A stretch of 64,000 bases of DNA from Psammoneis japonica (lineage: Eukaryota), in the NCBI GenBank assembly GCA_008632985.1, contig QPGO01000038.1, positions 335,939-399,938 of the forward strand, written 5' to 3'. Under the pieces are notes generated by a model, which worked only from the letters and a program-made list of their open reading frames with translations, ran no database searches and was not told where the DNA came from. Below, piece after piece: positions 12,014-55,500 of the stretch. The position numbers and the translations under genes are program-made. Positions within the stretch are counted from its first letter, which is position 1. Each line of letters begins with the position of its first letter.

Positions 12014-12590
12014 GTGTCAAAACACAGCGGCAGCGCGCAGTTGGGCGCAGCACCAGTGCTCACATCAGGAGCACAGGCCATCATGCATTCAGATTTATCT
12101 TGTCCTGAAGATTGCAAAAGACAGTGCCATTACCCAACCTTTCCAGAATTGATTAAGATATAAAAGTCATCATAGATTCAAGACATGTTTGCTTGAATAC
12201 TACGAATTGCTGAACAATTGCGCGATACACGTGCCCGAAGGGTGATTGTTGCTTCGGGCACGAAATTCGAGCTTCGCGCACGTAGAGACCGTAGAAAATA
12301 TACCAGCATTCGAGAATGTCCGATTTGTGTAGATCACGTAGCACAGTACCACAGAGGTCATTGATGAAATTACTTTAACGACTCATGCGACTACAATGAG
12401 ATTTTCAATACCATATACTATGTAGAATGGACATCTGCGCGAAGGAAGAATGTTGCTTCGGGCAACGATATTCGACCTTCGGGCACGTGTGTCGCGCAAT
12501 TGTTTTGCAATTTGTAGCACGCACATTGTGTCAAAACACACAGCGCGCAGTTGGCAGCGCAGCACCAGTGCTCACATTAGGAGCACAGGC
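12014..12590 (+). repeat. ~65-bp dispersed direct repeat (12014-12078, 12528-12590)
   Basis: Both copies read gtgtcaaaacac...cagcgcgcagttgg...gcgcagcaccagtgctcacat(c/t)aggagcacaggc. Confidence 0.85.
12200..12517. mobile_element. MITE family 2 with ~42-bp TIRs
   Basis: Left end ctacgaattgctgaacaattgcgcgatacacgtgcccgaagg matches the reverse complement of the right end, ctacaaattgcaaaacaattgcgcgacacacgtgcccgaagg; flanks are TA (left) and CA (right). Confidence 0.75.
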
Positions 12591-12859
12591 GCTTGCACAG
12601 CATCGCAGAGAGCAACACGCACGTTGCGTGGAAACGGCCGTTTCTCGCTCCCACCACCACAAACACACAAACATCATCAACACGGAGCACCTGCAACAAT
12701 GGCCATCGCCGCTGAAAATGAGCATCATCGATTTTGCGTTGACACCATTTGACCTGCTGTTGTCAACCCAAAAACCAGTTCACAATGAAAACAAAATGGG
12801 AGTGTTCTCTGGAGACGAGGTGTGCTTCTTCATTCTCACATTTCCAGAACTCATTTCAT

Positions 12860-14330
12860 TTTCCCTCCCACCTTGCCACGAAAACTGCTGCTGGCATCGT
12901 GCCAGCGCTTCCCACTTTTGCACCATCCTTTGGGGAATGATGACCGGCTGGCTTGCTTGCTGGGAATCGTCTGCTTCAACCGTCCAGGTCACATTGTTGC
13001 AACGGCAGTGGCTGTGTGGGTCCCTGCTTTCTCCTCTGTTGGAACAGATGCAGCAGCCATCTCCTTGGCAGCAAGGCTTTCACCTTGAGGTTCCATGTTG
13101 AATGTGCAGCTCCAAGGTTTTGGAATCTTTGTTGCTGTCCAAAGTGACAGTGCTGATGTTGTTCTCCTCCGGGGCGGCTTGCCTTCTTCATCGGAGCAGG
13201 TGGCACAAGAAAATGAGCTCTTGCTTTCATCGTCTGCCAAAACACAGTGTGCGCTGGTCATGCTCGCAGCAGTTTTTGCCTCTCAAGATGTGCAAAAGTG
13301 GGCCAGATTCTGTGTGCGCAGGACTCAGTGTGTTTTCTGCACAAATCGCCAAAGTCACCTCTCCAGCTTGAACCCCCTCAAGGATGATGGAAACTTGAAC
13401 ACAACAAAGCATCCAGGCTGGTCAACTGCGCTCCCCTCAACTTGTTCATGGAGAAAAACTGCAAGTTTCCATGCATTTGTTGTTTCCCACAGCTCTTCAA
13501 AACTCGAACGTCACAATTTTGGAGCCTTGTCAGCATCAGTGTGATCCCGGCACTCCTGCCCTCCTTGCGGCACTGGAAGGGCTTGATGGAAGCTGCACAG
13601 ACAGCATCACAAGTGGCCTCTTTGTGTGCATGCAGCACAAAGTGGTGCTGTCCTTCTTGTGAAAAAGTGCAAAAGTGTGGTTGGAGCAAGCAACCAGCTC
13701 TCTTCCTTCCTCAAGGGGCCCATGCTCACTCATCAGAGTGTGGCTGGTTTGCAGCAAGAGCTGGAGCAGTGGCAAGCACAGCCACCTCCTCACAAACAAT
13801 GCATGACAGTGGGATGTTCTGAGAACCAAAAGTGTGCTGCATGTGGTCACAAAATGCTTTGGCCCACTTCACAACAGGTGGAGACTTGGAGATCTTGGGG
13901 ACAACTTGATCATTGTCTTGCTCACACTGTGGAGCCTTCCGAGATCTCCGGAAATTCTTGAGAACAGGACTCCAATGCATGTTGGCTGCAGTGAGCTCTC
14001 TGCCAAGTGTGCCACAACACTTGGCATCTTGCAGAGCTGCCTTCAGCTGTGCACTGTGCTTTTGGCAAAAAGAACAACAGAAGCAGGGGTTGGAACAACT
14101 GCACCTGCAGGAGTGCAAGGGTTTGGATCAGTGACATTTCCTCCTGTGAAGGCTTCTTGAGGTTTTCAAATGGTTGCTTGAGACCTTCCTCATCAACATC
14201 CATCATGTCATTGACAAACTCAAGGCCTTCGACCATGAGCTGGGCACAAGTTGCATCAGGTGGCACTGTCTGATCAGTGTCCCCTGAAAGAAGGCATTGA
14301 TTTGTGTGGCGGCAAATGCTGTGGCAATCA
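12860..14330 (-). mobile_element. Degenerate CoDi-like Copia gag
   Basis: Fragments AKCCGTLGRELTAANMHW, VPKISKSPPVVKW, NIPLSCIV, APALAANQPHSDE and EAT...CAASIKPFQCRKEGRSA resemble diatom Copia gag with Y->C and R->C/H changes. Confidence 0.75.
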
Positions 14331-14789
14331 GCCAGCAGTGTGGCTCTGACAAAGTGCAAAAAGTGCTTCAATGAAAAAAATGCAATCTGTTGAAATTGTG
14401 AGACCTCTGTTGCATGGAGATTTTTGCATTGCACCACAGACCCAAAAATGTCAATGACATCAACAAATGACCAGGGCATTTCCAGAGCATCATGCACCAG
14501 CATGTCCAAAGAGTTTGTGGACACACCACTGAAACAAGCCAGCAGTCCTCTGGCTGTGCCTTGTCAATCACACAAGGACCAGAGCCATGAAACTCATTGC
14601 CTTTGGGAGCAGGGCACATGCAGCTTTTGATCTTTGGTTGATGCCAATGAGCCTTTTTGTGACAACACTCCTGGCTCATTTTTGTGCATGCTTTGTGTGC
14701 GCCCCCCAGCTCTTGCCCTGCCACAGCAGCGACAAGCACCCAGTTGAAGGAGACAAAAACGGGAGCTTCGCTCTTTGAACTTGGGCCAA

Positions 14790-15480
14790 TCCGGTGCGGC
14801 CCGATTGTTGCATGCACTGCCAGCATCCAATGGAGGACCAAGATCACATTCTACAGTGTCCCCATGATGAAGAATGGCACAGAAAGTTTTTGCAAGGCCT
14901 GCGGAAAAAGTGTGACGACATTCACACATCACCATCCAACTGTGATTTGATCCTTTCATCAATCAAGACATGGTTCCGAGAGGAAAATTGTGCATTCGGA
15001 CGGTCTTCATGGGAGTGTGTTGGCGGTTTTCCGATCCCAGGATGCTGTTGGCTGGAGGCATGTCTTTGGTGGACGTTTTTCCTGTGAATGGAATGTGACA
15101 CAGCAAGCTTGCCTGTTGTCCAGTGGACTGCATCAGGATCTTTTGGACAAAGAGCAGCTTTTGGACTGGGCAGCAACTGTCGGCAATTGTGTTTGGGAGC
15201 AATGGTGGGAGTTGCGGGACTCTCATGACGACAATGTGCACGGCCACGATTCGGACACTGGGAAGTCATCCCAATGGAGAGACGCTGAGGCAGAGGTTCA
15301 AGCCATTCACTCAAGATCAGACGAATGTCTTGCAAAGGACAGATCACAATTGTTCGATTTGGTTGAAGAACATCTCACACATTCCACCCATTGCATTCGA
15401 AAATGGCTGGCTGTGGTCAAACTGATGTTCAAGTTGAGCATTGAAGAAGCCAAGCATCCAGCTGCACGTGGAACTTGAGC
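14790..15480 (+). mobile_element. Degenerate non-LTR retrotransposon ORF C-terminus
   Basis: CMHCQHPMEDQDHILQC zinc knuckle followed by QDAVGWRHVFGGRFSCEW and WEQWWELR...VHG, typical of LINE-like ORF2 tails. Confidence 0.6.
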
Positions 15481-16659
15481 TGTCGCAAGTTGCTTTGGCA
15501 TGGCATTGCCTGCGGGTGATGCCAATCCTGGCCAATTGTTGTGTGCTCCTGCCGCACCATTGGTGTGCTGGGGGTGTGGGTTGGCTTGTTGCCAGAGTTG
15601 TGGGGTGGAAGTGCAGCAGCACTTTAAAGATGGAAGTTTGGTTTCGTTTTGTTCTTTGAACTTGGGCCAAAGTTTTTCCATGTGGGATGGGCAGCAATGA
15701 GCAACATGAGAATGACCTCAGCTGTGGTGTCACAAAGTAAAAACTCTCCATTGATGGGCCCACTTTGACCACTTTTGCTGTCAGCTTTTCAGGCTCTGTC
15801 TTGATTGGAGTCATTTTGTTTCCAGTGATTTCATCTTCAATGCAACCGGGCCCCCCTTGATCTGCCCAACACATTTTGGGCTCTGACACTTCCACGTCTG
15901 CTGGCGGCGACATTGTCCTGCAGCAGTGGGGCATCTTCCATGAGTTGTTCATCACAGAATTCTCAAAAATGATGAATCAAGATTCCTTGCTTCCTTTTTC
16001 TGCTTTCTTCTCTTTAGTCAACATGCTTTGGAACCCAGCGCTGGTGCAAAAGCCACTGAAATGAGAGATGGACCATCAAATGTCAAAGTCATTGGGTGTC
16101 ACACAACACAATGACTTGCAGGACAAATGACAAGGCCAAGACAGTGCTTTGTGTGATGGCTGCAAAGCCACCAAACAACAAGTGGCAAAAACCTCACTTG
16201 GAAGTGTGCAGAAGTGCAAATGTGAGGATGAGTGTTGCTGCAATGAGAGTGACCCATCAACACCCAATGGGCTCATGCACTCTTTCTTTGCCAATCAGTT
16301 CCAGGCATCCTCAATGAGGGGGTGGTGCTGGTCCTGCTCTCTGCAAGCACTGAACAGCGCCATCTCTGAGAGGGGTTCCACATGTTGAGACAGGGAGGTG
16401 TCAAAGCCCTGTTGCAAGATGCCACCAACACCACAATCTTCCAAGACAGCCAGCCAAAGCAGCATTGCAAAAATGGCTCCAATGCCAGACTCCACAAAAA
16501 ACATGTGCACAGGGTGGCAAAATGCATGTCCAAACCCCAGCCTCTCACTCTCATCGCTGCATCAACTGCACAAAAACCTCTTTCTTCTCAGACTGACTCA
16601 CTCACAAGCAGCACACCAAGGCAGTTGGGATCAAGCCTTCCAACAAGCACGTGGCTGCG

Positions 16660-16905
16660 TGAAGTGATCAGCCCCACATCTGCATCAAACATTTGGGGCT
16701 CAAGTGTGCAATGATTGCTGGCTGATCCAATGACAGCCTGCTGACAAACATGACTTTTGCTGTGAGGTGCATTTGCTCATGCTTGCTGCATGAAGTGATC
16801 AGCCCCATCTGCATCAAACATTTGGGGCTCAAGTGTGCAAATGCTGACTGATCCAATGACAGTGTGCTGACAAGCATGACTTTTGCTGTGAGGTGCACTT
16901 GCTGC
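16660..16905 (+). repeat. ~130-bp tandem duplication
   Basis: tgaagtgatcagcccca...catttggggctcaagtgtgcaa...catgacttttgctgtgaggtgca occurs twice. Confidence 0.85.
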
Positions 16906-17872
16906 AGCGCATGTTGCTGGCAACTGTTGCACTCCTTTGTCTGTGCATGGCTGGTCCACTTTGTGCATTGCGTGCAGCAAGCTTGATGAAATGGCACCAC
17001 AATGATGTGTGACAAACAAAGCATCATGTGTGTTGGCATGCAAAAGCCCCAGAGTGTCTCACATCTTGTCGGGCAAGCCCGAGGCAGGTGCGCTTCCAAA
17101 AAAAAAAGAACACGTTTTGCTCCAAAGTGTTGAGCAGTGTGTTCTCCATGTTGGCCAGCCTCCTGTCAAAATTGTGTGATTTGTTGGGTGCTGCTTGCCT
17201 TGATGCATGATCTGATGGACCAAGATGCTGGGGCAAGAGCCTGAGTGCTCCCATTTTTGTTTGGCTGACGCGCCAGTGGAAAGTTGAAGACGAGCCAGCG
17301 CAGCCTCCACCACAACAAAAACAAGAGAAGCTCCATCTTGCAGCAGCATGAGACACTCTCTCATTTTGTTTTTGCAGGATGTCCAGCCCATGTCAATGAG
17401 AGCCAGGCACCTGCACACCAAACAAAACCAAAAGCACTGACACAACTGCAGTGTGAAACCAGCGTGTGCCCCGCAACAAGTGGAAAAACATGTTTGTGGC
17501 AAGTTCATTCACTCAAGAGCCAAATGCCATCAATGTGGACAAAACACAGGCACACAAAGAAATGTCAACATTGTTGTTCTCGATTTGTTGGTTGTGGGCG
17601 GAATTGGATTTGGATTGTGAATTTGAAATTTGAAGATTTTTTTCGTCAGTCAGTCGCTCGGCAAGTCTTTTGCATTTTCGACGGTTACCGTAAAGTGTAC
17701 GTAGGAATTAGTAATGTTTCTTGAAAGTACTGAATTACCACGAATCTTCTACATACGAAATCATGTTATTAATTCTACAGATATACTACACAAAAATAAT
17801 AGTGATTGACAAATTCAGCAACGGTCACGACACAAACCAAAAAAGTTGTTCGTTCGCGCTCGATTTTCGATC

Positions 17873-18176
17873 ACAACTCGTCGTCTCGCACGATGTGTTT
17901 GTTGTTTGCCAAGCAGGAACGCAGGCGATCGCCCAGGATGGCTCACCCTTCCTGTGGATAATAGAAAGTCTTCTCTTGCTTGGCAGTTATACAACTCATT
18001 TTGCTTGATGGCGTGTTGTCTCTCTTTTAAAACTCGTCGTCTTGCACGATGTGTTTGTTGTTTGCCAAGCAACGAATGCCGCGATCGCCGAGGATGGCTC
18101 GCCCTTCTTCTGGAACAGATTGCTCGCTCTTGTTTGGAATTCCACAAATCATTTTGCTTGATGGCGTGTTTTCTCA
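17873..18176 (+). repeat. ~157-bp tandem duplication
   Basis: aactcgtcgtct(c/t)gcacgatgtgtttgttgtttgccaagca...tcattttgcttgatggcgtgtt occurs twice. Confidence 0.85.
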
Positions 18177-19347
18177 ATCGGCGGCGTAGGTGTTGCCAGT
18201 TAAGTCCGGAGGTCGGGGCAAATCGAATGCGTCTCTCCGGCCTTGAGTCCATGTCACTCTCGTGTCTTCGAGCGTAGGAAGTTGCCTGTTCGCTTGACCC
18301 GTCAGGTCACGGCTGTTGAAACAGACAGCAGCGTTCGTCTGTGAAGCAACAATAGCTTGCCAAGCAGATCATACCGTTGACGGAACGCGGGGTTTGGGGT
18401 TCCGTCGTACCAGTGACGTGGTACGGTAAGTCTTCATTCGTAAGGAATGTTGATTTAGCACGCGGTTGACTCGCAAGTTTTCTTGTTGTCTCCGTAGTAC
18501 GTCCCCCCTTTTTCTTTTTTTTGGGATGGTGATCCACCCCGAAAATAGGAAAAAGCTTGAGCTCCATCTTCTGATGGCGCTCTTGAGGCAATGCTATCCT
18601 ACGCAACCGATTTCAATAGCTACTTTGAAACTTTTCCTTCGGATTCATTCTGATGTTATTACAAATAGTGATCTAAATTACCATATATAATACAGATCTA
18701 GGGTTATGGGGGGGTTTAGAGCATTCCGTGCGCAAGTGATTGCGATGGCGGCCGTAGAGTTTGTTGTGTAGGCGTCTCTTGCTGCCGTTTCTGTTTCGAT
18801 TCTTTCGTAGGTACCTCGTCTTGTTTTGTATCAATGGACCTTGTCAGTAGTTCTATTGTTGTGTTACCGGTAAGATGATCCATTCGTATCAGCACCAACA
18901 CCGTTTTGAAACAAAAGATTATAATAACGAAACATGCAGTCAAAGTATGCTGTCTGCTGGCGAGCGATGGGATTTGTTCCATTTCCTCCTCCGTGGCTTA
19001 GCAAATTCACATTAATTGGAGTTCCTTGCATATATTTTGCTTTCGGCTGCTTCTTGGCCTGTTTCTTTGCAGACATGACCATATCTTCACCGTTGCCTTC
19101 CTGCTTCCTGAACGCAGACATCGCCTAAAGTTTCTCCGCTTTCTTTCACCACGATTGTAGAAAAACGAGCTGAACAGCACGAAAGCGCAGCTTTGTCTCC
19201 TTACAATCCAAAGTTGGGTCCGAGAGTCCATCCAAGTGGCCTGTAAGATTAACAAGTACCATATATGAGAATCCAATCGCTTCCTTTCGAACACTATGCT
19301 ATTCCACAAACTCGATACACTTACCTGAGCTCCTCAAAATTGTAGGA

Positions 19348-20230
19348 TTATGAATGATGCAAGTATCCAGCCCCACAACATGGAGCCGCGACTAACCTAC
19401 CCGTGAGAGAAACACGAAGCATGCCATGGATGGGATTAAGAATACCACTCATGGCAAGCTTGGCGTGTTCCTTCTCCGTTCCGTTCTGAGCTACCGCCAA
19501 AGCCAGACGCAAGGCAGCAGAGACAGATCTTTCTCCAAAGCCACCCACAAGAAGAGTGGGCAACACAGCTTGTCGCTGTCTGGTTCCGTATACGAGAACG
19601 TCACACGCAATGGAACAGAATTCTTGTTCTCGCCTCTTGAAGTCATTGTCTGTGGGTACATCATCCTGCATTATAGCCAACATTTACGTTTCAAAAGATG
19701 AGAATTCCATCCAACCCTTCGTTTCCAACTCATACATTACAAGGCTACTAACTCACCCTTTTAAACAACGATCCCTTTCCGCTTCCCGGAGCCACAGAAG
19801 AACCACAAAAACTGCCAGCCGCAAGCAAGGCAGCTTCCACCAAGTCCACAAGCGCTGCATTGTAATGAGGACCCTTTTTTCCACTCGCAAACTCCGTCTT
19901 GGCTCGAGCACACGCCGCCAGCAAAATCCATAGGGCCGTCGTTGTGACGTCTCGTGGAGCATTGCGGGCCTGCTTTCCCTTTTTCTTGTAGGTATACGAG
20001 TCGGTATCCACCATTTGATAGAGTCTCGTCAAACAAATTTCCGTCTCGTCGGTATGCGCAATCCCAAACAAGGCACAGAGATTCCGACAACACGCGTCTA
20101 ATGCCTTCATGGCTCCCACCGCCTTGTCTTGCGATTCAAAGTCCAATGGAGAAGCCAAGATGCGTGACACGGTCGAGACGGCACCCGCATCAATGGCTTC
20201 CAGCAACCGATCTAAGAGTTTGGGAGAGCG
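19348..20230 (-). pseudogene. Fragment of a helical (ARM-like) protein gene
   Basis: Two protein-like ORF pieces (19748-20206, 19348-19683) without a clear start or end; TA is retained. Confidence 0.4.
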
Positions 20231-20239
20231 GTTCTTCCA

Positions 20240-20875
20240 TCATACATTATAATGGCGGCCGACGTTTCCAACATACCCGAACAACGCACAATACTCGTCT
20301 TCATCTCCCGCCTCACCACTCACTCCTACAGCTCCAACGAATTCATCACCCAACTTTAAAAGAATATCACCGGGAAATGGGGCCATGTTACCTCCAGATA
20401 CTGAAACTTTGACAAAACTTTGCAGACGCCTCGTTTGCTGCAGACAAATCTCGAAAGGCTCGAGACGGATACTTGTTGACAATGCACGAAAATGTCTTGG
20501 CCTTGGCGAAATCAGGCAGTCCAACTGGATTGCATCCATCCATTCTTTTTGATACGAGCGATGAACCAAAAGCGTCCAGCACTTACACTGTGACTGGATT
20601 GAAACAATTTCGCTTGCAGCAGGAAAGTGTTGGCAATCGAGTCGGCCTGACTGGACATAAAACGGGAACGTACTGAAAGTCCGTGTAGCTGGGATCATTG
20701 GATAATATTATCGTTGAGGAGGTAATGGGACTTGTCGGCGTTGAAAGGTTTTCCAAGTAGCTCGACAAAGTGAGACGAGAGTGACGATTTGGTAGTGAGC
20801 GATAAAGGCGCTGGATTGAGTTACAAGAAGCCCAAGCGCCACGGCAGGAGCAGATAGGAATCTCTTATTTCTCAT
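20240..20875 (-). pseudogene. GlcG/HbpS (DUF336) heme-binding-like gene, disrupted
   Basis: PVTV*VLDAFG...RMDG...AKAK and PGDILLK...VGAVGVSG...DEDEYCA lie in different frames; signal-peptide-like MRNKRFLSAPAVALGLLVTQSSAF; in-frame stop and frameshifts. Confidence 0.7.
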
Positions 20876-21414
20876 TCTTTTGTCAACGTATGGTACCAAA
20901 TGACTGATTCCTTCGGTGTGGATGCAGTGGACTGTTCTCGGCGGACCTTGTTGAATGCGAGCAGGTTTGGAGGACGCGGGAGAAGCTAGTCGGAGCGACT
21001 TCTCTTCGTAGAGAAATGGGCAGTTTGAAGCGAAAGGAAGTATAGATACCGACCGTATGTCCAAAGGGAGCGTGAAAGAGAAGGCTTAGCGGAAAGCTGC
21101 CCTTGATGACTGATCTGAATCGCCTCTGGCCCTCTGGCAGCGCCATGTGCCATGGGTAATGTGACACGCGCCACTGATGTATATTGTTTGCATCGTGCGT
21201 ATCTTGTGAAAGTGGATAAAAAAGGTTCTCCCCATTTCTGCTTTTTGTCGCTACCACTCAGCACTAGCCCTACCATATTCCTACACTTGAAAGACCAATC
21301 AGATGAGCGACATTCTCACTTGAAGTCTCCAACAAATCCTTGGAATCCACTAAGCATGAACATGTGATAGTATATTTCTTTTTGGCAACTCGAGATGTGT
21401 AGTTCCCAGAACTG

Positions 21415-21580
21415 GATTCTGCCACCGATCAACCTCTAGCCATCACTGAATTTCCTCTTGCATGACCATTAAAGTAGCAAGGCCGGGGCACAAGTGACAC
21501 GCTTCCATTGATGACGTTGATTCTGCCACCGATCGACCTTTAGCCAACGTCTGATCTCCTCTTGCATTGTCATTCAAGTA
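21415..21580 (+). repeat. ~63-bp imperfect direct repeat
   Basis: gattctgccaccgatc...cctcttgcat...catt(a/c)aagtag at about 21415 and 21519. Confidence 0.7.
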
Positions 21581-21871
21581 GATGATGGAACACGATGAAT
21601 GACATTGAGGGCTTTGTCAAGGCTAAAAGTTGAGACTCTACACAATGCCGGATGCAGTGATGATAATCTTCCAACATAATCATAAGTACAGCACCCCGCG
21701 GCACGCGGCTCGCAGACAGCGTTGTTTCTGCGCCGACTGTACGTCGACGTGATCTTCCATGTTGCGAGGTCGACAAGCGTGCCATTAAATGCACCGCCAA
21801 GGTGTACACCACCTGGGCTCCCAGATTAGCTGTCCGGTTATTCTGATCTAGTTTTTGAAGAAAAACATTCT

Positions 21872-22480
21872 TCAGAAACAAGGCAGACAATGGCGTGGCA
21901 GTGAAAGTCCACAGCAGCTGCCTTGCAATGGTGATTGAGGACTCTCCTGTTGGTTTCCTGGGGAACATGCCAAGAACCATGGTTGGTTGGTGCAAGCTTT
22001 GTCTTGGGCAGATGCATCACCTTGTTGTCCTGGCAGACAAGGATTGTGCCCCCCCCCCCCCCCATCATCAGAGTCCTGCTGCAGAACCAAGAGGCAGCAG
22101 ACAATGGCACGACAGTGCAAGTCCACAGTTGCCTTGCACTGGCAATGCATCACTCTGTTGGGTCTCTGGGGACATGCCAAGAATTGTGGTTGGGCAGTGC
22201 AAGCCTTGTCTTGGGCAGACGCAGCCCCTTGTTGTGTCCTGGCAAACCAAGATTTTGCCCCCCAGCCCTGCTGCAGAAACAAGGCAGAGAACAGTGTGAT
22301 GGGGCAAGTCCACAGCTGCCTTGCAACAGTGATGGTGAAAACTCAGTTGAGTCCCTGGGGGCATGCCAAGAACCATGGTTGGGCTGTGCAAGCCTTGTCA
22401 TGGGTCCACACAGCACCTTGTTGTCCTGGCAGACCAGGATTTTGTCCCACCAGTCCTGCTGCTGAAACAAGGTAGACAGC
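21872..22480 (+). repeat. Three-unit tandem repeat, unit about 190-205 bp
   Basis: cagaa(a/c)caag...aagtccacag...catgccaagaa...gtgcaagc...tcctggca repeated three times. Confidence 0.88.
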
Positions 22481-24466
22481 AGCATGACAGCACACGTCAA
22501 TGGACCACAATGATGGTCACAGCAATTGCAGCGCTGTTGCAGTCTGTGTTGTCATTGTTTCTGCTTTGGCGCTGCACCGCTGTCTGCTGTCTGCTGTCCT
22601 CTTGTTTTCAAATGGGGTCCACACTGTGGTGTTCATTGCGGGATGCCCCAAGGCTTGTTGATGACAGGTGCTGCACTCTTGCAATTGATGTCATTGTTGC
22701 TCAATGCCAAAGCACAGCTGTTTCCAACACTGGCATCACAACTGAGTTCTGCCATCGCAGCTGTTTTTGCACTGCTCCATTGATTTTAGATGTTGCATCT
22801 TCAGCACTCTTTTGTGGAACTGAGAGAAAAATTTTGAGGGAGGGCCACGACAATGGAGAAATGAGATTGCCAACTGAGTGACCACCCATGATGCAAGAAG
22901 CTTCCATTTGTCTTCAAACAAGTTGCCACAAACTGCACTGACAGAGTCTAAATGCCAAACAGCTTTGGCAACCAAGTGAGCATGCAGGCCACCTTGTTCA
23001 AGCAGCATCCACACATTTCAGAATCTGGCAGTTGACAAAACCCTTGCACTTGACATGGACTTGATCATTTGGTCCAGCACAAGGGCCAGTCTTTCAAAGC
23101 CACACAGAACTGACATGGAAATCCTTTCTGGAACTTGTTCCTCTCTTGCACAACAGAAGGGACTGTTTCCTTGGCAAAGACTTTGTCAAACTTGTGTGCA
23201 AGAAGTGACGTTGTCGCGTGCACGAGCCCTGGCTTTTCCCAGCAGCACTTGTGACAGCACATGTGCAGGTCCCCATGGCCACCCAAACAATCAATTGCTC
23301 ATGTGCACTTTTGCACAGCATGGGCAACCCACTGTGGGGGTGCTGTCTTTTTTCCAAAAGACACCCCACCACATCCAAAGGCTCAGCTGCGGCTGGAACA
23401 AATGTCAGCCCCTTGTTGCTGCCGGTGGTTTTTGAACAAGAGCAATGTGTGGTTTCCTTTGGGGGCTGCTCATGGAAGAGAAACTTTGGCATGCCACCAG
23501 CAGCACAACTCAACTGTCAAGTCTCCACCAAGCCATCAGCAACAACACTTGGAGGCACCAATGGCGCAGCTGTGTCTTGGTGTCCAAGAGACAAACAATG
23601 ACCACAAGTGCATTTGAAAAGTTGGGCAAGAGTCATCACACCAAAAGACAGCCATGCAGACTGTGCACACCAGCGCTCAATTGGAGAATTCTTGGATGAC
23701 AGAGCCAGTGCCCAGATGAGATTTGCGCCATTGTTGAGTTTGTCTGGCTTTGACCAACAGCCAGACACTTTGAGTTGCCACATTTGCTTCAGAATCTGAG
23801 GCAGTTTCTGAACCTCATCAATTGATGCATTGTTCAGAAACCTCTTCAAGCATGGATGGCATGGATTTGGTTGCTCATGTGTGGCACAAAAGCAAGCATG
23901 GTGAGCTCTCTCTCCTCCTGCACCAAACCAGGAAAGAATTTAAAAAAAGATGCCACATTGTGAGATGAAGTTGCACATGAAGACACACTCTCACCACAAC
24001 AATGATGGCAGAAGAAAGACAAAAATGGGCACCACCATCATTTTCTCCTTCAAAACAGCAGGCCGTGATGTTTGTGATGTTGTGCAGCACATTGCAATGT
24101 GCGTGCTTGAAGAGTGAAACACATGATGGAACAAAGGCTCATCATGCACTCAACTTCACTCATGGCTGCATGCACACAAACAGTTGGTCACAATGACTCG
24201 CGGTTTTGGTTGATTGTGTCAAACCAAAATGTTGGTTGCAGTTTTGGCTCACATTTTCCAGCTGGCATTCTGCTGCTTCTCCAGCCAGCTGGTCACTGAA
24301 GTTCACAAGAAGATCATTGATTCAACACAACTTGAATGTGACCCCCATTCAAGAAAAGAAATGGCAGAAAACAGAATCAGGAAGTGACTTCATTGGCTGA
24401 CAATTTCTCAAGCTGAGCTCTGAGAACATCTCACAGTTTCCTACAAAAAAGTTTCTCATCACCACA

Positions 24467-27390
24467 ATGATCTGCGGCTTCCTTTGCGTGGCCACCACCC
24501 TTCCATTGCACATGAGCAGTGTTTCTGTCCATGGGCACATGAAGTCTCCTGGGTCTTGCAACTTTGTTGCTTTTGAGGATGGCAAGCACTCACCTCTTCT
24601 TGCTGAGGACCCCCAAATCAAGGCATGTCTGCACAAGAGCTCAAGCCTTGCATCATGTGAAAAATGTGCACCGGTTCTTGTGTTTTTCATTTGCACCATT
24701 TCTTGTGCACAGGATTGTCCCCATTGCCTCAACTTGGGAGGCACTCTTGCCAGGCACGGGTTGATGGTGGATCGCAACTGCGATGTGCCTCTCAATGCCT
24801 TGGGCTGTCCAATGCATGCCAACCCCCAGATTGTCCATCAGGGAGGACAAGAGATCACCACTGATGTTGTCCTTTTGCCGCCCACCACAAGGGCCACTTT
24901 GTCTGCAAGGCATGCCCTGTTCAGGAGGGTGAAGTTGCCCCTCCCAGGTGCAACATGCTTGAAGAACAAGTGTGAACAAAAGCAGAACAAGGTGCAAAAG
25001 TGGAAATTGTGAGATTCATTTCTGCTCAATCATTTTGGGTTTCTCCGAACGGGTTCTCAATGGCCTGAAGCTTTTGCACTGCTCCCACAGACAAAAAGCC
25101 TTTCAGAGAATGAGATCATGACAACAGATTGTCCGGACATGATTGACATTGACACATGACACATGTCAACATCATCGCATGACCACATTTGCAATTTTCG
25201 ACATCCGATCAATTCTGTGTGATTGATCTGTCCTTCGTGCGAACCCACGATTGACGTGCAATTGAAGTGCAAACTCATTAAAAAAAATGCACAGACATGC
25301 ACACATGTGACACACATGACAATGGCACAGGAGTGCTTTGATGAAAACAAGCTCAAGTTTGTCAAGGACAACCTGTGCGGTGCACCCAAGGATGACAGCC
25401 ACGTGGAACAAGCATGCATTGCTCCAAAGTCCCAATCAAATGCTGTTGTTGACAGCTCAGAGTTGGTGGTGTGAAGTTTTCTCACGATTTTCAAGTTGCC
25501 TTCTGATCTTGCTGGAGACTTGGTCTTGATCCAGTGGCATTGCTTGACTGCCAGCAGTTGTGTCTGCAAGGGGGCAGCATCTGTTCCATGACCTTCTTTG
25601 GCTGCCCCAAACATGGGTCCTTGCAAACCAATTCCAGAAGATGGGAACAGAGTCCCCAAACAGGTGAGCAAGCTGTGCACTGTTTTTGCATTTGAGGCTT
25701 TCAAACAAGCAGATCTGACTCAGATGCAGCCTTGCCCATTCAGTTCTGGAACCGTGCAGAAGTGATGACAGGACCATCTGGACCACCCACTTTGACTCCA
25801 CCTCCTGCCATTGCTCTCACCCTGACACCAACTCTTCCAATGCCACCGACCCCCACTTCACCTCCTGTTTCTGGCACTGTGGAAGACTTGCATCTCATTG
25901 CGTGCCTCAGCAACTGGCAATCTTGTCCCATGGCAGCACAGGCAGAAAAGTGCACACTCTTTGTGATTGCCTTTGCCATCAGTCATCAGTGGGATCCCAC
26001 CAAGAACCAGCGCAGTGCGACTTGTGAGATTTCCACTCCACTTTGCAACAATGCTCCAAATGCCATGCTTGTTCAAGAGCGGCAAGCTGCCAGCAAGAAA
26101 GTCATCCTTGGCTTTGGTGGTGCCAGAATGGGCGGAAGCTGGAATGGTGACAACAATGATTGTTGGGAGCACTGCTGTGGACATGAGACCCAAGTTGTGG
26201 ACCAGCAGCTGTGACTTCCATTGCAGACCAACTTGGACTTTATGGTGTTGACATTGACTGTGAGAGCACATTTGTGAAGACAATCAGAACAACTCGGGTT
26301 TCACCAAGGGAGCAGAAGCCCAAAAGTTCTTGACTGATGTCACTGCTGGACTGCACCGGAGTCCTCCAAATGGATCAATTGTGACCCGCGCTCCCATGGA
26401 ACCCGATCTTGTCCCTGGTTCAGTGCACTGTGACATTCTTGTCAACACAGCTTCCAGTCTTAACTTTTTGATGCCTCAGTGCTGCAACGGGTGCACCAGC
26501 CCTGCATTGGATGGAATTGATGGGACTGGTGCAGGCAATCAGTCTGCTCTCACTCATTGTGCCAATGTGGTTGACAATGTGTTTGAAGGCGATGCAATGA
26601 AGATGGTGTTTGGATTTTGCACCTCTGACTGCAGTGGCACCAGCTCCAATGCCAAAGCCAACCAAGCTGCTGCTGTCATCTGTCATGGTGGATCTTGTGA
26701 CACACTGCAACTGCAATGGTGGCACCTTCTTTTGGGTGAATGAGCACAGCACAAATGGTGATTAGTCGAATGCCATCAGTGCTGCCATGCAACCAAATGC
26801 AGGATGTTTGGGTGGGCCAATGCCACCCGGACCTGCACCAATGCCTCCTCCCACAGTTGGAGTTGCTCAGCCTCCTGCCACCGGTGGCACCGGATTGATG
26901 CCAACTCCCACTGCTGCAACAACCCCACCTCCTGTGGTTGGCACAACCCCCTCACTGACCCCAACCACCACTTCCCCATGTGCCATGTGTTGCAAAAGAA
27001 AGTGGAGAGACCAGAATTAAGTCAACAAATGCCTGCACCAAGTTCCATCACTGCAAGAATGGGTTGGTCGTTGGATTGCCCATTTCTTGCTCTAACGGTC
27101 TCTTGTTTGATGAGACAAATCAGTGCTGCAACCATGCCTGTTTGGTTGCTTGTGGTTCTGAAGAGTGCTCCTTGCCAAGCAGACCTCCTCCCACACCTGT
27201 TGCAAGGTGCGGAGTGAACTGGCAGGATGCGGAGACCAGCTGTGGTGCCGTTTGCTGCACCAACATTGATTGTCCATCTGGGCAGCAGTGTCATGCTGGA
27301 ATCAACTGTGGCCAAAGGAGGTTGCCATGCGGAAAAGCCTGCCAGTGTGCCAGATGCGGTGCAAGTGGAGAGTCAAGGGCTTGTTGACAA
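24467..27390 (+). pseudogene. LPMO - Pro/Thr linker - GH18 chitinase - CBM14 - Cys-rich (CBM18-like) pseudogene; paralog of 33469-34938
   Basis: LPMO motifs HGH.KSP.S.NFVAFEDGK, DCPHCLNLGGTLAR, HHKGHFVCKACP, VLIQWH, FWN.AEV; GH18 motifs KKVILGFGGA.MGGSW, GVDIDCE (DxDxE), LMPQCCNG; introns retained; frameshifts and stops. Confidence 0.9.
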
Positions 27391-27804
27391 AATGCACGAA
27401 GGGAGCTGTGCATCTTCATCAGGTGTCATGTTGATCTAAAATGCATTGTTTGAGACAAAACTCAGTGCAATCGCACTTTCGGCAAAAGCATGCAAAGAAC
27501 AAGAAGCACACAGCTGCTCTCATGGCATTGGAGAATGCCCATGCCACCACTGTGCCAGCACCCTTTCAGATTGCCTGGTGCTTGTCACTTCTTCAATGCA
27601 GCCAATGCTTCAACTTTGATCAACATCAAGATTGACTCTTGCGTTGCGTTGTTGCTTTGCCATTGTGATGTGATCTTTGCAATGTTGTTGCCAAGAGCAA
27701 AAAAAAAACAAGCCACAGGTTGACAATCCTTTGTGATGGCAAGCACTGCCACACACTGTTGCAGACCATCATGCATGCTGTCATGCATCTTTCATGCACG
27801 TGTG

Positions 27805-28060
27805 CATTTGCATGACAAAAATTTGTCTTGGTGGTTGCATGTGGTTGTTGCACATGGTTGCACATGGTTGTCTTGTGCACTGTCACGCACTGTTGTGGAC
27901 TGTCACGCACTGTCACGCATCTCTCAAACACATGTCATCCACACGCCAAAAATTTGTCTTGGTGGTTGCACGTGGTGTCACACATGGTTGCACATGGTTG
28001 TTTGCACGATTTTGAAATTTTGCATGCCATGCAAGGATGGGCAGAATTTGTCACGCACCA
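27805..28060 (+). repeat. Nested short repeats
   Basis: caaaaatttgtcttggtggttgca twice, cacatggttg four times, tgtcacgca four times. Confidence 0.7.
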
Positions 28061-28379
28061 CGATGCTCTTTTGGTTTGTTGCCCACTGTCTTTTTGTTGG
28101 CAAGAATGCGTTTAGCCACTGGCACATGCTGCAAACATCTTGTTCAAAAAATTCATCCTGGAAGCTGTCCGGGGTTGTGCGTGTCAACCTGTTGGCTTTG
28201 AAAGCACACTTGCAATGCCACGCCCCAACAGTTGCATGGGTGAGAAGGATCTTGTGAAGAGATCAGCAGCAGAAATGTTGAGGAAAGCAAAGACAAAAAG
28301 CCATTGTTTCATCATGGTTTTGTTGCATGTTCTAGCTTTGTCTGCCATTTTTCCAGAAAGAAATGCATCCACTGGAGAT

Positions 28380-38759: not shown

Positions 38760-39450
38760 AAATTAGAATTCAGAATCCATGAAAGTGCACATCCACCATG
38801 GAATTCTGGAGCAGCGGTGACTTTTCCACAGGTGCGCCCGACTCCCTCACACACGAGAAGCTCCTCTGCGGCTCTCAAGGACTGTTTTCCCATTTTTCTT
38901 GTTGCTTGAGCCAGCCTCCAAAGATGAATGTCAAAAAAGGTGCCATGACACAGAGAAACGTGTTGAAGATTGTGCGCACGGTGCTTCGAGCATGTGGGTG
39001 TGCATCATTGAGGCCATGCTGCTGTTCAAAACAATGATCAGATGCCGCTGCATTTGTGAAGAGAACCACCATCCACAATCCAAATGTCATGAGCCACCAC
39101 ACTTTCCACTTTTTGGGTGGTGTTGGAGAAACAGTTTGGCCCTGTTGGGTGCATGTGTCCATGAAAACGTCAGGAAGATGTCGGTGTTTTTGGAGTTGCA
39201 TTGTGCTGGGCATCACAAGGAGTGGCTCCAGTTGTTGCATGAGATGAGCTCTGAAAGGAGATGCCACATAAAGATTGAGCATGTCAATCAACTTGAAAGT
39301 TAAACAAGGCACACACAGGTCAACGTTTTTGGGAGATTGGATCCCTGTTGAAGCAACAAACCTCTGTTCAAAATGAGGGCTGATCTTTCTCTGCATGAGG
39401 ATGTCCTGAACATGACTCTACAACACGGTGGTGTTGCTTCTTCAGCCACA
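38760..39450 (-). pseudogene. ABM-like (antibiotic biosynthesis monooxygenase-associated) membrane protein pseudogene
   Basis: PPKKWKVWWLMTFGLW...VMAPFLTFIFGGWL resembles the PPxWK...W and P.l..lf..WL pattern of this family. Confidence 0.5.
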
Positions 39451-40829
39451 TTTTTTTCTGCTGCTGTGCATGATTTTCATTTGGTGAGAGCAAAGTCAGC
39501 AGCAAGAGCAGTTGGCTGGTCTATTGGCAATTGTTGAAGGAGAGATGTTGCTCCATGTTGGCTTCATCATCCCAGTGTGGGGCATGCTGCTTCTTTCAGA
39601 ACTTGAGGATGGCAATTTTTTTGAATGGCTGAAGAAACAAGAGGGTGTGGCTCATCTTCTGCCTGCAAAAGATTTGCCCTTGCTGAAAAAACATGTTTGG
39701 ATTGAAAACGAGACTGAGCAGACAAGATCACTCTCGATCAAGTGCTGCAGCACAAGGCCAGAACAAAGGCACACAAGTCTGAAATCAATGTGCAGCAGCA
39801 CGCCATTGCCACCGAGTTTGTTGATCAAGAAGTGGAACAGCAAGAGGTTCACATGCTCTCGCCGCCAAAGACTCGAAGTGGCGCTGTCACACAACTGCAG
39901 AAACTGTCTTTCAAACGGATCGAATTTGGTGGGGTGCCACCATGTGTCTGGTTCCTGCAGTGTTGCTGTTGGGTTTCACACCGGCATTTCGACGGGAAAC
40001 CCTCGGCTACAAGCAAAACGCTAAATGAGTTGCATCCACTGGAGTTGCTTGTGATTATGAAAACGTCATTGCAACCACAATTTTTGCATCTGAGTTGAAT
40101 GTCCCACTCCTCCAATGGCTTTTAGAGTTGATGGGAATTTGCTCTTGTCGGGAGCGACGACAGTTGCTTCTATCGGCATGAGTTGCATTTGGAGAGCCTG
40201 TGATTGTACGCTCGGCACTGAAGGCAGGCCCCATCACGATGCGACGTCACCATCAAAACTCCTGTGCAGGCAGAGACGGGCACCAATCGCCAGGCAAGGA
40301 CCATCTGCAGTCTGCATGTAGTTTGTCAGTTTCTACAGTTGCCGATCAATTTTTTGGCTGTGGTCTCTGATCCTCATGGTGGTCTGACCTTTTCAAGAAG
40401 TTCATCAGTCATCATGTCACAAGATCAGGCGACTTGCAATTCTTTTGAAATTGAGAGGCCTTGCCTCCATCCACTGGCATGAAGTTCCAGGATGCAAAAG
40501 GCATTGATTTCTTCTCCTGGTGGGCCCTGGCAACTGCAGCAAAAAATCTGCCAATGACCACTGTGACATGGTTTGCAGAGTTTGCTTCTTGGAAAAAATC
40601 AAATCAACTGTCCCACATTGATTCATTGTGTGCATCAACAAGCTCTCAACACTGCCGTTGAAGACATGATGCCAAACCCATGCTGGTCCCTGAATCTGCC
40701 AAGTTTCTCCAATGTGCCGACTTGAGTGCAGCAATTTCCTCCACCTCAAGCCTCACCCAGCTGGAAAAAACAAACAAAGTCACAGACTGATGTCATGGGG
40801 CACAGTCATTTTGGCACACGCTTTTTGAC

Positions 40830-41900
40830 TTTCTCAAGAACACCCTGAAAAGGGCTGTTCAACAAGATGTCCAATCTCCTCAATCCCAAAAAGACACTGA
40901 CAAAGAACAGCAACAACAGGAGCTGTCAACTGGCATGAAGCACCCACCACAGCAAGTGGAAGAGTCACAGAGCAAATTGTCAAGAAGCGCAAAGCATGCC
41001 TTGAATGGCTCCACAAGAGGCATGGGTGTGTGGGAGATCTTTTCACATGGCTTGGTTCACATGACTTGGGACATGACACAAGGGTGCAGACCTCCCAGTG
41101 AGACAAATCACATGGAGGTGCAAACTCTCAGCATTTTCCATTGCACCCATCTCTTTCAGAGATTTCATTGATCATTTCCTGCACCACAGTGGGAAGGCTT
41201 GCTTGGTGGGAAGATGGAAGCTGTTGCAGGCAAGGATCTCTTGTTGCCCAAATGGATCTGTCCCCTGATGACCATGGCTGTAGCACAATTTGTGCTGTTG
41301 GTGAAGTGGCTGGTTCCAGACCAGCCCACTGGCCTTGTTGCTCAATCAGAGTGTCATGCAGCGGCCCTCTGAGTGCCACATCATCTCACATTGCAGCTGT
41401 GTTGGGCAAGAAGGGCAAACCTTTAACACAGGGTGGGCACTTCCAGGCTGCACATGAAGAAGGACGCAGAGGAATTGATGACATGCTTGGACTTGTGTTG
41501 TGTGTGACAGCAATTGAAGCTCTTCTTGCCATGGATGTGCAGATTCTAGCAGCAGAGAACGCAGCAGGCAGCACTGACTTTTGACCCACCATCAATGCAT
41601 TGACACCCACATCTCTGGTGGCAAAACCACAGAGGTTGTCTGCACCAACGCAGAGCAGGTGTGATTGATTTTGGGCCATGCCATGGAGCTGGCAAGCTGC
41701 AAACCCTGGCTTGATTGTTGGCTGTGCAGCCTTCTTGTCAGGAATCGCACGAGGGGCGATGGGAGCCAAAGCTGTTCCTTTCTTTGCCAACAAGCCAAAG
41801 CCAGCAAACCAACTCACCAGTGCAGTGATTGAGACTAGAGATCCAATGCATCAGCTGCCACTGTGGCACAAACACCACCAGCAGCTGCTGGCCAGCAGCA
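40830..41900 (-). pseudogene. Bestrophin-like (UPF0187/VCCN) anion channel pseudogene
   Basis: SRHALRFLTI..VTLPLAVV...TAPVVAV...LFGIEEIGHLVEQPF; upstream boundary approximate. Confidence 0.8.
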
Positions 41901-42404
41901 AACAAAGCAGCAGATTTGCGTGCAGGAGCAGCATGATGACCACGGGGCAGCACAGACACAGCAGAGCTCCATTTGTGGCAATTTGTTGGAAATGAGGTCA
42001 GCAATTCACAACAGCAGCTTTCTTGGTTTCACAACACGGGGCGTTGGCAAAGCTCGAGGGCTGTTGCTCACGCCACATTTGAGTTTCTTTGGGGAGGGAG
42101 TTGGTGGCAGCGCACACTGGCTGAACCAGCTTGTTTCAATCTGTGTCGCTGCTGCCCTCTACAAGTCATCATTCTTAAATTCCAGCTTGTCGGCAGCCAA
42201 GTCCGATCTTGCAAGCGGAGCAAAGAATCATCAAACAAGATCCGCGTGGTCCTTCGCATGAGCACACGTGATCTTCGTCGAAAGGACCGCACATGTGCGC
42301 ACTTTGGCTGACACTTCAACTTGACACCCCCCCAAAAAAGATTTCAAGACAGATGTAGATCTCGCCTGCGCAACAAACGCACTCAAACGACGGATGCATG
42401 CACG

Positions 42405-44655
<2,251 letters not shown>

Positions 44656-47164: not shown

Positions 47165-47272
47165 TTCGCACCGATAGCGCACCACCCCCCGCTTCGTGTT
47201 ACCGGTAGTGTTGCGCTCTCACAATTCACAATCGCAACAACATCAACAGCTCAAAGCAGCAAAGTACTAACC

Positions 47273-51982: not shown

Positions 51983-52269
51983 GGCGGACAGTTATGGAAC
52001 GTGTCTCGAAGCTAGTGTCTATGAACGCAGTCTAAGCTTATGGGACGTGACAAAGGCAACACTTCGTCTTTATCAGAGTGCTATAACACACTAGTTTTCT
52101 TGCCAACGCCGCAATGGTTGCGGGCGACATTGTCTCCAACGCTCCCGTAGCACTAGTATTTTAACCCACTGTCACGTTGGATCTACAGAGGCAGGTACCA
52201 CAAATGAAATGATAATAATGTGAATAAAACTATACGTGATTGAAAAAATCTGAACGAATTGAATCGATG

Positions 52270-55200
52270 ACCTGTCCTGGCTCGGACTCGATGGTTGGCA
52301 GTTTTGTTCTCCATGTGCAACCCCCTCCATGAAATTGATGCTGCGGTTCTGGATGACAAGAGTGCAAGAGCAGAGGTTCTTGCCACTCATGGTTCAAAGA
52401 GAGGCTGACTCTTTGATGAAAGCACACTCTCCTTTTCAATGTTGCGTGGTTTGTGGTGGAGAGAGACTGACATGATTGACACCATTTGTGGCAAGTGCAC
52501 ATGGCTTCTGTGTGCAATGCATCATCACAGAGTTTGCTTCTCCTGAACCAGCAAGGCACATGAGATCCATGGCAAAAAAGCATTTTTTGGTGCTGTTGAC
52601 TCAAGAAGGATCATGAAATTTTCTTGGCCAGGCATCAGACATTGAACGGAGTCAAGTGCAGTTGTTTTGCTGTTGGTGCTCTGCTTCAGCACAAGGTGAC
52701 TTCCAAAAAAACCTTGTGTGCAATTGCTCCCCACTTTGTCAATTTGTAACAGAGCTCCCCAGAAGAAATCAAAAATGCCACCTCTTGTGTGAGCAAGAAG
52801 ATCAACATCTTCTCTTGGGGCTGCATCTGTTTTCTGGCACTGACAAAGCACATGATGTGTCGAGTCCAGAGCTGGGCTGACACATGTGCCCATCATTCAA
52901 GGAAATCACAGAGCAAAAGAGATTGGATGAGACACCCCACCCTTCTTGCCGACAGAACATGCCAACACAAGAAGCATGTTTAAGCAGCAGACAACAATTG
53001 CTGTGCACACACAGCATGCTCTCAGTTCTCAGTGCAACCCAGACAACAGGCCAGTGGTGCTCCGTGGTGCTGGTTCAAACAAGCAGTTGAAAACACAGTT
53101 GAGTGGAGCAGGAAGGAAAAGGCAGCAGTGCCACACAGGGCCAAGAGGAGCTGTGCAAGCTCTTCTGTCTTTTGTTGTTAAATGGAGTGGTGTGCTGTGC
53201 TTGTGGTTTTCATGCTCTGGGGGACAAAGTTGGTGGGGCAGCAGCTTTGGTTGTGTGGTGCTTTGTCAGCAATGTGAAGAGAGGAGAGGCCAGGCTGGAT
53301 GCTCCAGTCTTTTGCTCCACATTGTTGCAAGCATTCTTGCCTGAACATCCTTGTTCTTTGTGTCTTCTGTGAGAATGTGACCCTCACAATAAAACACCAT
53401 TGCATGTTTGTCCCATTCTCAAGCAAAATCTCAACAACACGTGCATTGTTCCTTCTTGCTTTTGTCGTTGGGGTTGAGAATGTCCATGTTGGACCCAGCC
53501 TGCTGTGTGAGCCTTCTCAGCATGTTGGCACAACCTCTGCAGTTGGCTCAGCTTGCCGTGGGCATTGAAAACTCAACCACATGCCAAGTGTTCTGTGTGC
53601 TTCTGCTCACAGTGGCAGAGTGTTGCCCATGTCATTGGGCTCAACAATGGGCCATGTGCTGCATGTGCCACACAGCAAGCTGCAGACAGAGAATCTAAAA
53701 TTTGAGCACATGCACATGCTGTCAACTGAAGGATTGCTGCATTCCATCAATCTGTTGGTGGACAAACAGCTTGACATGACCAGATTTTTTTCAAAATTTT
53801 AAGCTCTTTGCCAAATGTTTTCTGAGCTCTTCTGCCCTGACTGTGTCAGAGCCTTGGCTTTGTTCTCCCCTTTGTGCAGAACACAGCCATCTGGAGCACT
53901 TCAATGCAGAAGGCATGGGAGAAAAAGAACATTCCTGTCAAAAACAGTTTGACCCAAAAAGATGCAGAAGAAACAGAACAATCCTGTCCAGAGTGCTTTG
54001 AATGTTGTTTGGCCCTTGCCCCCCCCCCCCCTCTCTGGCTCTGGTGGATGAAAAAAATAAACAGCTGCAACACACAAACAGAAATGAGTGCACTGGCTGG
54101 AGGAGCAACAAAACAAAACACAACAACAAAACAACATTAACAACTTGGCACAGGTGAGGACATGGACATTCTGGATGTCATCTGCTGGGCCACAACAGGC
54201 ACACAGAGAAGGTGGTTGTGATGGCAGTGCTTGTTGCCATGCACTGCCTGTTTCTAAAATCAAGTTTGCTGCATTTTCTGTCTTGAGAACATCATCCATG
54301 ACCCCTCTCATCTCAATGTTGAAAGCACCAAGATCAGTGGCTCATCTTTGTCTTTGTTCACCTTCTTCTTGCAACTTGGCCAACAAGAGAGCTGCAAAAC
54401 TCTTGGCAAATCTCTTGCTTTCCTCAGCACAGTGGCAGGAATGGCAGCCCAGGCCTGGCTGTTGTTCCCAAACAATGAGTGTGCACTCAAGTTGCCTTTG
54501 TTGGCCTGAGCCCCACAAGACAAAGATCAGCACAGGCATTTTGATTTCATCAAACTTGGTTGGGTGGTGGTGTGGCTCAGCATGTGCTTGCAGCTTTCCA
54601 ACAAAACACCCATCTGGGCTGTGGCTCTCATCCTTGTCAGCTCCTCTGGAGATCCAGTGAAGACTGTTGATGCAGAAGCTTCTGCCAGTTCAGGAACAAG
54701 CAGGCTCTTGCTCTTTAAAAGAAAAAATCACTTTGACCTGGCTGCTTTTGGTGACAAGCCTTTGGCATTCCTGACATTTCAACTCATGACAGATGCTGCC
54801 ACTCCTGCGCTGTGCCTGAAGAATGGACTTGACAAAAGAGCATGAACAATGGCATGGGTGCACAAAAGAGAAGAGAAAGAAAAAAATTGCATGCTTCACT
54901 TTGTGTTTTGTTGTGAGCAACTGCAACTCTGCAGCTCTTGGACTTTGTGGTACAAAACACCCACACAAGTGTGCTTGGGTGAAACTCAAATTGTGGCAGC
55001 TGTGCAGCACAACTTTGTTTTGTGTTTGTTGGCTGTTCTGCTCTTGGACTCATGGAGACAACAGTGCCCCAGCAGGTGGCAACATGATTGCTGTTGCAAG
55101 CAAGGTGTGAATGATGAGAGATGGCCACAAAATTGTGTTGCTTGAGCATTTTGTTGGAGGTTTCTGAAGACACAATGGCGCTTTTGGGTGGAAGATCACT

Positions 55201-55500
55201 GCAGCACTCACATTTTTGTTGAAGGGCTCTCAAGCCTGAGTGTGACAGCAAAGCAAAGTGCAGGGCAGTTTGAAGATTGTGGCAAAAGCAATGAGAAAAA
55301 TGAGGCTGCTAAAACAGGAACCTCACATTCTTCAGTGTGCTGCAATCTGACTCTGACTCACTTCCTTTCTCAGCCAGCAGCCAACAGCAGCACTCCTGAG
55401 TGCAAAGCTCCAACCAAGTGCTTCTCTTGGACAAGTTTGTTGTACACACAGCCCACTCTAGCTAGAGTGGCTGGCTGGCATGTCCACTGAAATGCGTCGA
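52270..55500. other. TpA-depleted hypermutated block E with unidentified degraded coding remnants
   Basis: TA nearly absent; protein-like remnant on the minus strand at about 54130-54560 (EESKRFAKSFAALLLAKLQEE...). Confidence 0.9.

Follow-up and report, generated by a model that had tools for sequence, protein, structure and literature searches.

The TA-erased blocks and their surviving TAs

How do a few TA dinucleotides persist in DNA from which nearly all others have been removed, and what do they tell about the process that removed them? The question is raised by a 64,000-nucleotide stretch of the genome assembly of the diatom Psammoneis japonica (G000, 91.4 Mb; G000:C39:335939-399938), hereafter the window, in which six blocks, altogether 26,649 bp, retain only 95 TAs (Table 1). 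The observed/expected ratio (o/e) within the blocks is 0.01-0.10 for TA and 0.09-0.57 for CG, while outside it is approximately 0.55 and 1.0, respectively. The block borders were drawn with a hidden Markov model (HMM) that scores only the presence of A after T and does not use the flanking bases. A seventh HMM segment, 58245-59895, was excluded, as it lies within a 1382-codon open reading frame (ORF) and has a CG o/e of 1.31.

An earlier note on this DNA had suggested that the residual TAs are mostly in the context YTAR (Y, pyrimidine; R, purine). The ten positions that it cited are all YTAR (eight TTAA, one CTAA, one CTAG; position 1140 lies outside the range 12520-55500 that it gave), and 'mostly' amounts to 58%: 55 of the 95 survivors are YTAR, 36 are mixed (YTAY 18, RTAR 18) and four are RTAY. 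In the range 12520-55500 alone, YTAR accounts for 46 of 78. Outside the blocks the YTAR share is 211/1361 (Fisher p = 2.6e-19). This baseline is largely coding and thus short of the stops TAA and TAG, so the survivors were also compared with the flanks of the TG/CA steps inside the blocks, of which 1356/5914 have Y and R on the two sides; the YTAR excess persisted (p = 4e-13). When NTAN tetramers were counted inside and outside the blocks, as the note had proposed, a depletion uniform across flanks was rejected (chi2 168, df 9). Its statement that TAC, TAT, GTA and ATA are scarce applies to ATAT and ATAC/GTAT, with no survivor each where about 72 and 158 would be expected at the outside density, but not to every TAC, since 15 CTAC/GTAG remain. 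The loss of CG is much less dependent on the flanks (ratios of 0.30-0.44, and 0.65 for GCGC, in a count that includes the excluded segment).

The note went on to conclude from YTAR survival that the target is TAY. The survivors alone do not suffice for this. Just as it lacks TAY, YTAR lacks RTA on both strands, and no other context does; the survivors are therefore silent on which base changes. A preference for TAY did emerge from comparing copies of the same repeats.

Comparison of copies

Around the window, 42 alignments of TA-rich with TA-poor copies gave 231 sites, each counted once. At the 129 mixed sites, the adenine in TAY had changed in 77 cases and the adenine in TAR in 23, and survival was 12/41 for YTAR and 3/61 for RTAY. 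Elsewhere in the genome 70 copia loci were taken, of which 65 fall into six families (A-F) with 93-99% identity; five singletons or pairs were excluded. Among 343 mixed sites of families B-F, 236 favour the TAY adenine, 59 the TAR adenine, and 48 are tied. In these families one and the same site may have ended as TG in one copy and as CA in another. Where only one strand reads TAY, it is mostly the A of that strand that changes; compared with the A in TAR, its rate is approximately 2.5-3 times higher. We consider this flank rule itself highly probable.

Family A allowed hit copies to be compared with nearly unhit ones: five copies (98.5% identity) have hardly been touched, and three others each have a hit patch of 2.5-4.5 kb. 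Relative to the intact sisters, the changes at TA sites are to TG or CA in 337/341 cases, and at mixed sites the TAY adenine was changed 134 times and the other adenine 50 times (55 versus 21 in a single copy alone). Survival within the patches was 26/71 for YTAR, 36/214 for mixed sites and 11/121 for RTAY (p = 3e-5, with the patch zones narrowed to the hit part after inspection of the data; the earlier broad zones gave p = 0.13). When one hit copy was compared with references including the two other hit copies, there was no sparing of YTAR (4/15 versus 20/78), and the polymorphisms of the reverse-transcriptase region of family A alone, before filtering, showed no clear rule. The patches have lost 333/406 TA but only 35/642 CpG, which places the erasure of TA before the decay of CpG.

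Two further ideas about these elements were rejected. An apparent 5' polarity of the family A hit patches is an ascertainment effect, as the copies had been chosen for an intact reverse transcriptase. Spreading from adjoining erased DNA was dismissed, as the TA content of the flanks did not predict mutation at the element ends (rho -0.10, n = 31). It was also observed that the copia families at L082-L121, whose TA o/e is about 0.2, retain reading frames of 1,000-2,200 codons; they stay open because TA to TG or CA creates no stop codon. Some changes are common to several copies, so elements that were already partly erased may have continued to transpose.

A rate table and its prediction for the window

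Rates were fitted to 616 sites in 54 young copies of families B-F, with the blocks of the window left out, as per-strand multipliers in a competing-risk model (G = 1, bootstrap by site). At position +1, C and T are equivalent (2.54, 2.11-3.29, and 2.53, 2.15-3.34), and A is at 0.76; the +1 effect is visible in all five families. An A at -1 gives 1.58 (1.34-2.03), and the rate is roughly halved by T at -2 (0.50, 0.39-0.60), A at +2 (0.52, 0.42-0.63) or T at +3 (0.54). The per-strand rates are highest for ATAT (1.57) and ATAC (1.32) and lowest for CTAA (0.21) and TTAA (0.18). The preference is therefore graded rather than absolute, as the note had allowed, about threefold at +1 with further terms at -1, -2, +2 and +3. 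The +3 term has no mirror counterpart. The -2 T and +2 A terms, in contrast, mirror each other: they raise survival in every class and leave the strand choice at mixed sites nearly unaltered, which suggests a property of the duplex.

With a single fitted dose, the copia rates reproduced the ten survivor classes of the window (Spearman -0.98). The predicted/observed numbers are 17.6/23, 23.5/23, 8.5/9, 15.3/15, 10.7/7, 9.2/11, 3.4/4, 2.3/3, 0.8/0 and 0/0, the first pair being TTAA, which is slightly above its prediction.

Strand symmetry and specificity for TA

In the copia copies the ratio of sense to antisense changes is 1.00 (0.90-1.10), changes do not correlate in strand, however near or far apart they lie, runs on one strand are as frequent as in random order, and copies agree on average no more than expected. 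Together these properties argue that the process acts on the inserted DNA and not on RNA or cDNA. Hit sites do cluster along a copy, with a correlation of 0.31 within 10 bp and of 0.08 at 1-3 kb; a chromatin domain would be expected to give this.

Adenines outside TA are hardly affected. A to G occurs at 336 per 1000 per strand at TA, compared with a flat 2.0-2.6 per 1000 copy-sites elsewhere when rare variants are counted (AA 2.3, or 38/16,286; GA 2.0; CA 2.6) and 4-14 per 1000 with all variants. No secondary activity on CA is seen, and C to T outside CpG is at background. The 5' T is close to obligatory. Two other causes of TA loss were considered and rejected. Methylation of adenine in ApT does not fit, as TAC equals TAT and AT steps not preceded by T are not raised; the ultraviolet TA photoproduct gives transversions, and the products here are transitions.

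Proposed mechanism

The comparisons show that a host process acts on the chromosomes in stretches of a few kb, covering transposons and redundant copies of genes, and makes only transitions at TpA. The A of either strand can become G, and as a single change destroys TA on both strands, each site ends as TG or CA. An A before C or T is changed about 2.5-3 times faster, a 5' A adds a factor of about 1.6, and the whole site is hit at half the rate if position -2 is T or position +2 is A; YTAR remains because neither of its strands is fast. The changes build up one site at a time in the inserted DNA, with no runs on one strand and ahead of the decay of CpG, probably in many sparse rounds. The chemistry that we consider most likely is enzymatic: A would be deaminated to hypoxanthine and read as G at replication, by a deaminase that recognises TpA in the duplex, or where it opens briefly, and is recruited to silent chromatin. 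We give a probability of about one half to this reading, host adenine deamination on chromosomal DNA. The note had likewise proposed an enzyme-like A to G change; the strand choice does favour the A of TAY, but the enzyme and the A to G direction are conclusions drawn from it, since T to C in RTA describes the same event.

Several points weigh against adenine deamination. To sequence comparison, A to G in TAY looks the same as T to C in RTA, and deamination the same as polymerase error. The absence of strand runs is not what one pass of a processive single-strand deaminase gives, and the near-absolute 5' T and the equality of C and T at +1 differ from the description of the adenine deaminase TadA7.10. 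The deaminases found in the genome look like an ordinary set, with none singled out, and a gene for endonuclease V is present. In the most heavily hit family A copy, YTAR is not spared (4/28 kept versus 17/145). Two of the three hit family A copies agree at 80/105 sites and may share some history, and some pairs in family F agree at up to 0.94, so some changes were inherited rather than independent. Finally, the copia copies were chosen by their intact reverse-transcriptase score, and sites changed in every copy are missed.

Alternative explanations

If the changes were errors of a polymerase or of repair synthesis in silent chromatin, with G placed opposite T after T and mismatch repair off or overwhelmed, the flank terms would reflect the polymerase and the shape of the DNA. 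Equal strands without runs fit errors linked to replication, and the mirrored -2 T and +2 A terms look like a duplex property. However, polymerase eta mutates TA and AA, and loss of mismatch repair raises A to G in many contexts; the flat background, with AA, GA and CA alike, argues against such a WA pattern, and nearly exclusive transitions do not favour this explanation either. We regard it as rather unlikely. The same footprint would be left by an enzyme that modifies the T in 5'-RTA, for example by oxidation to a form pairing with G, and leads to T to C; by complementarity it is identical to A to G in TAY, and specificity for TpA alone resembles enzymes that read a dinucleotide and flip a base. 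The genome indeed has many C5-methyltransferase genes, several of them DNMT4-like by our reading. On the other hand, the catalytic PC motif is conserved in the five that were aligned, TA is lost earlier than CpG, and the genome search gave no match to TET/JBP, a weak argument as the control was likewise empty. We know of no enzyme that edits T to C, and consider an altered T unlikely.

The remaining two explanations fare worse. ADAR-like editing of RNA, or of cDNA during retrotransposition, copied into the genome, finds some support in the two A_deamin genes and in the liking of ADARs for a 5' U. It is largely refuted by the symmetry of the strands, sense and antisense being hit equally and interleaved in a single copy; moreover, copies of host genes and short repeats show the same pattern, and TAG, the optimum of ADAR, is among the slowest contexts. 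We hold this to be very improbable. That the mutator has no flank preference at all, the YTAR excess arising from new TAs, target-site duplications, selection, the coding baseline or assembly error, could draw on the slight TTAA excess, on the shortage of stop codons outside the blocks and on the fact that the sole covering sequencing run may be the source of the assembly. Against it, ancestral TAs known from intact sisters survive by class, the strand choice at mixed sites is independent of any baseline, contigs of that run reproduce block 3, and the pattern recurs in unrelated metagenome contigs. We find it hardly credible. The run in question, X1, has Logan contigs matching 23170-28611 with 0-1 differences per contig, so the TA depletion is present in reads, with the caveat that X1 may be the run from which the assembly was made. 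Most of what run X2, from the same sample, covers in 12000-31900 is gene-bearing and unerased (13/30 bins).

Candidate genes

The genome carries dCMP-deaminase-like genes, a TadA-like gene on contig C38, an ADAT2-like gene on contig C26, other small deaminases, and the two A_deamin genes, one on contig C40 and the second at G000:C79:344558-345390 (L133/L134). In the tRNAs edited by ADAT2/3 the target A is followed by A, C or G, and UAG is the favoured context of ADAR and of mRNA editing in fungi; the slowness of TAG and TAA here counts against any of these enzymes acting unchanged. The MPG/AAG glycosylase was not found in the genome search, in which the control matched in only 4/14. The available parts of PMC10960570, PMC9399415 and PMC13384257 contain nothing on an adenine flank preference.

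Some gene copies were themselves erased. The C5-methyltransferase copies L141, L142, L143 and L147 (G000 C301, C297) have lost TA and mostly kept CG, and the family appears expanded; at L144 a chromodomain-like ORF lies beside a methyltransferase ORF. A fragment of an OTT_1508-like deaminase (L244:1453-1692) is situated in an erased block of 5 kb with a 170 bp inverted repeat at its borders; the search for an intact parent or a relative found none, the one match being a spurious repeat protein.

Content of the window

The blocks are sharply bounded and alternate with the ordinary genes SSRP1, SAE2, peroxidase, Sec10, PhyH and LPMO_10, which are spared. For the PhyH gene (55601-56794), every named relative is from a diatom. 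The erased DNA holds repeats with copies elsewhere and decayed copies of host genes; for blocks 1-3 the content is known only from matches at the DNA level and from five ORFs, none of which had a hit. The block 2 repeat has two copies on other contigs that are 92-96% identical and erased to the same degree, and short direct and inverted repeats lie at the left edge of the block (12014-12078 / 12528-12590 and 12200-12241 / 12476-12517). Some of the host-gene pieces in blocks 4 and 5 are multi-copy in the genome, as though a mobile element had picked them up. The short repeat between blocks 3 and 4 was probably inserted after its neighbours had been erased. It stands unmutated between them, and its summed contig depth is approximately 115,000, compared with about 70 for single-copy DNA. 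The 1382-codon ORF (57194-61342, minus strand) is without a Pfam match, of low complexity and TA-poor by nature, and has kept its CG.

Table 1. TA-erased blocks and related features, in positions of the window.
Feature	Position	Strand	TAs	YTAR	Remarks
TA-erased block 1	1-3234	.	17	9	extends ~6 kb to the left past the window start
TA-erased block 2	12579-17685	.	4	2	
TA-erased block 3	21850-28638	.	15	12	
TA-erased block 4	29006-33190	.	28	16	decayed pieces of glutathione-reductase-like and leucine-rich-repeat (LRR) genes, plus repeat
TA-erased block 5	38229-42354	.	19	8	decayed bestrophin-like and M17-peptidase-like pieces
TA-erased block 6	52234-55441	.	12	8	strongest CG loss of the blocks (o/e 0.09)
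Erased partial LPMO_10 copy	24711-24938	+	0		intact parent gene at 33706-33931 with 7 TA, spared
TA-rich high-copy short repeat	28639-29005	.			between blocks 3 and 4; erased sister at 2979-3362 (block 1)

Metagenome copia elements

Related copia loci were also collected from metagenomes (the best 80 of 520, in a scan that favours intact elements). Five loci with TA-poor windows, picked by eye, represent three distinct elements (L228/L214, L193/L190 and L227); 5/80 is not an estimate of prevalence. The elements are at most 74% like the P. japonica copia loci compared, and three of the contig names point to microbial mat. Their RTAY share of TAs is 0/16, 0/41 and 0/55 (0/112 in total), versus 31% in the other 75 loci, and their survivor spectrum tracks the diatom rates (Spearman -0.84, p = 0.002). 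The strand choice was 8 versus 6, with a relative of only 77-83% identity as the reference.

Relation to known systems

The closest parallel is the chlorarachniophyte Bigelowiella natans, in which de novo TpA to TpG/CpA hypermutation was measured in integrated viral DNA and ADAT2 was proposed as its cause; the de novo rate is raised about 1000-fold, and the process is confined to some of the lines (Mettrop et al., bioRxiv 10.64898/2026.01.13.699255). As far as the main text of that preprint goes, the two systems share the change on both strands, domains of foreign or mobile DNA and TpA-poor clusters. In the diatom, by contrast, the process comes near saturation, strikes copia elements, short repeats and duplicates of host genes, and is followed by CpG loss. 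A flank rule and diatoms are both absent from the main text; the same rule may hold in B. natans, for which Table S2 of the preprint lists 230 de novo TpA mutations. Our literature searches found no other description of TpA to TpG/CpA hypermutation, and the erasure in the diatom with its flank rule refines a process that is known from a single description in another alga.

Repeat-induced point mutation (RIP) of ascomycetes likewise wrecks repeats and duplicated genes by dinucleotide-specific transitions. RIP, however, is C to T and creates TpA, whereas the diatom process removes it. As to duplication as the trigger, the LPMO_10 duplicate is hit and its parent spared, while the five nearly identical family A copies are almost unhit next to three with a patch; high identity alone may thus not be the trigger, although these copies may be too young. 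Diatom DNMT4 and the RIP protein RID may be related, and in the part of the source available the function of DNMT4 is open (Hoguin et al., PMC9998398).

Mutagenesis by polymerase eta at WA, known from somatic hypermutation, has A to G at TA in common with the diatom, but AA is not raised here. Editing of retroelements by APOBEC or ADAR makes coordinated changes on one strand, unlike the uncoordinated changes on both strands seen here. The TadA7.10 editor is engineered and works on single-stranded DNA. The earlier note had likened the mutator to TadA, and the likeness is partial: the 5' T, the 3' pyrimidine and, if it is one, the A to G change agree, but the non-TA adenines are at background, the 5' T is near-obligatory, T and C are equal at +1, and the mirrored effect at two bases suggests a duplex substrate, while evolved TadA7.10, in the accessible part of its description, prefers a 5' T and a 3' C (PMC8387386). 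A natural tRNA deaminase, ADAT2/3 of amphioxus, was reported to deaminate A in DNA, but also C to U, and the part of that report at hand does not mention erasure of TpA domains (PMC10354150); in the diatom, C to T outside CpG is not raised.

Significance

It is possible, and we propose it tentatively, that diatoms, and perhaps chlorarachniophytes, possess a natural adenine deaminase that edits TpA in double-stranded chromosomal DNA, best as A-TA-Y, as a defence; it would be an equivalent of RIP for A:T pairs, and unrelated hosts would have its flank signature in common. The table of 16 context rates is a biochemical fingerprint against which candidate enzymes can be tested, and it allows a direct check of whether two distant algal lineages share one mutator. 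The combination of absent RTAY and remaining YTAR offers a cheap screen of other genomes and grades how heavily a repeat has been hit. Programmable A-to-G editors have reportedly been evolved from a tRNA enzyme; if the proposal is true, a natural DNA editor specific for TpA would be a new chemistry of genome defence and a possible tool.

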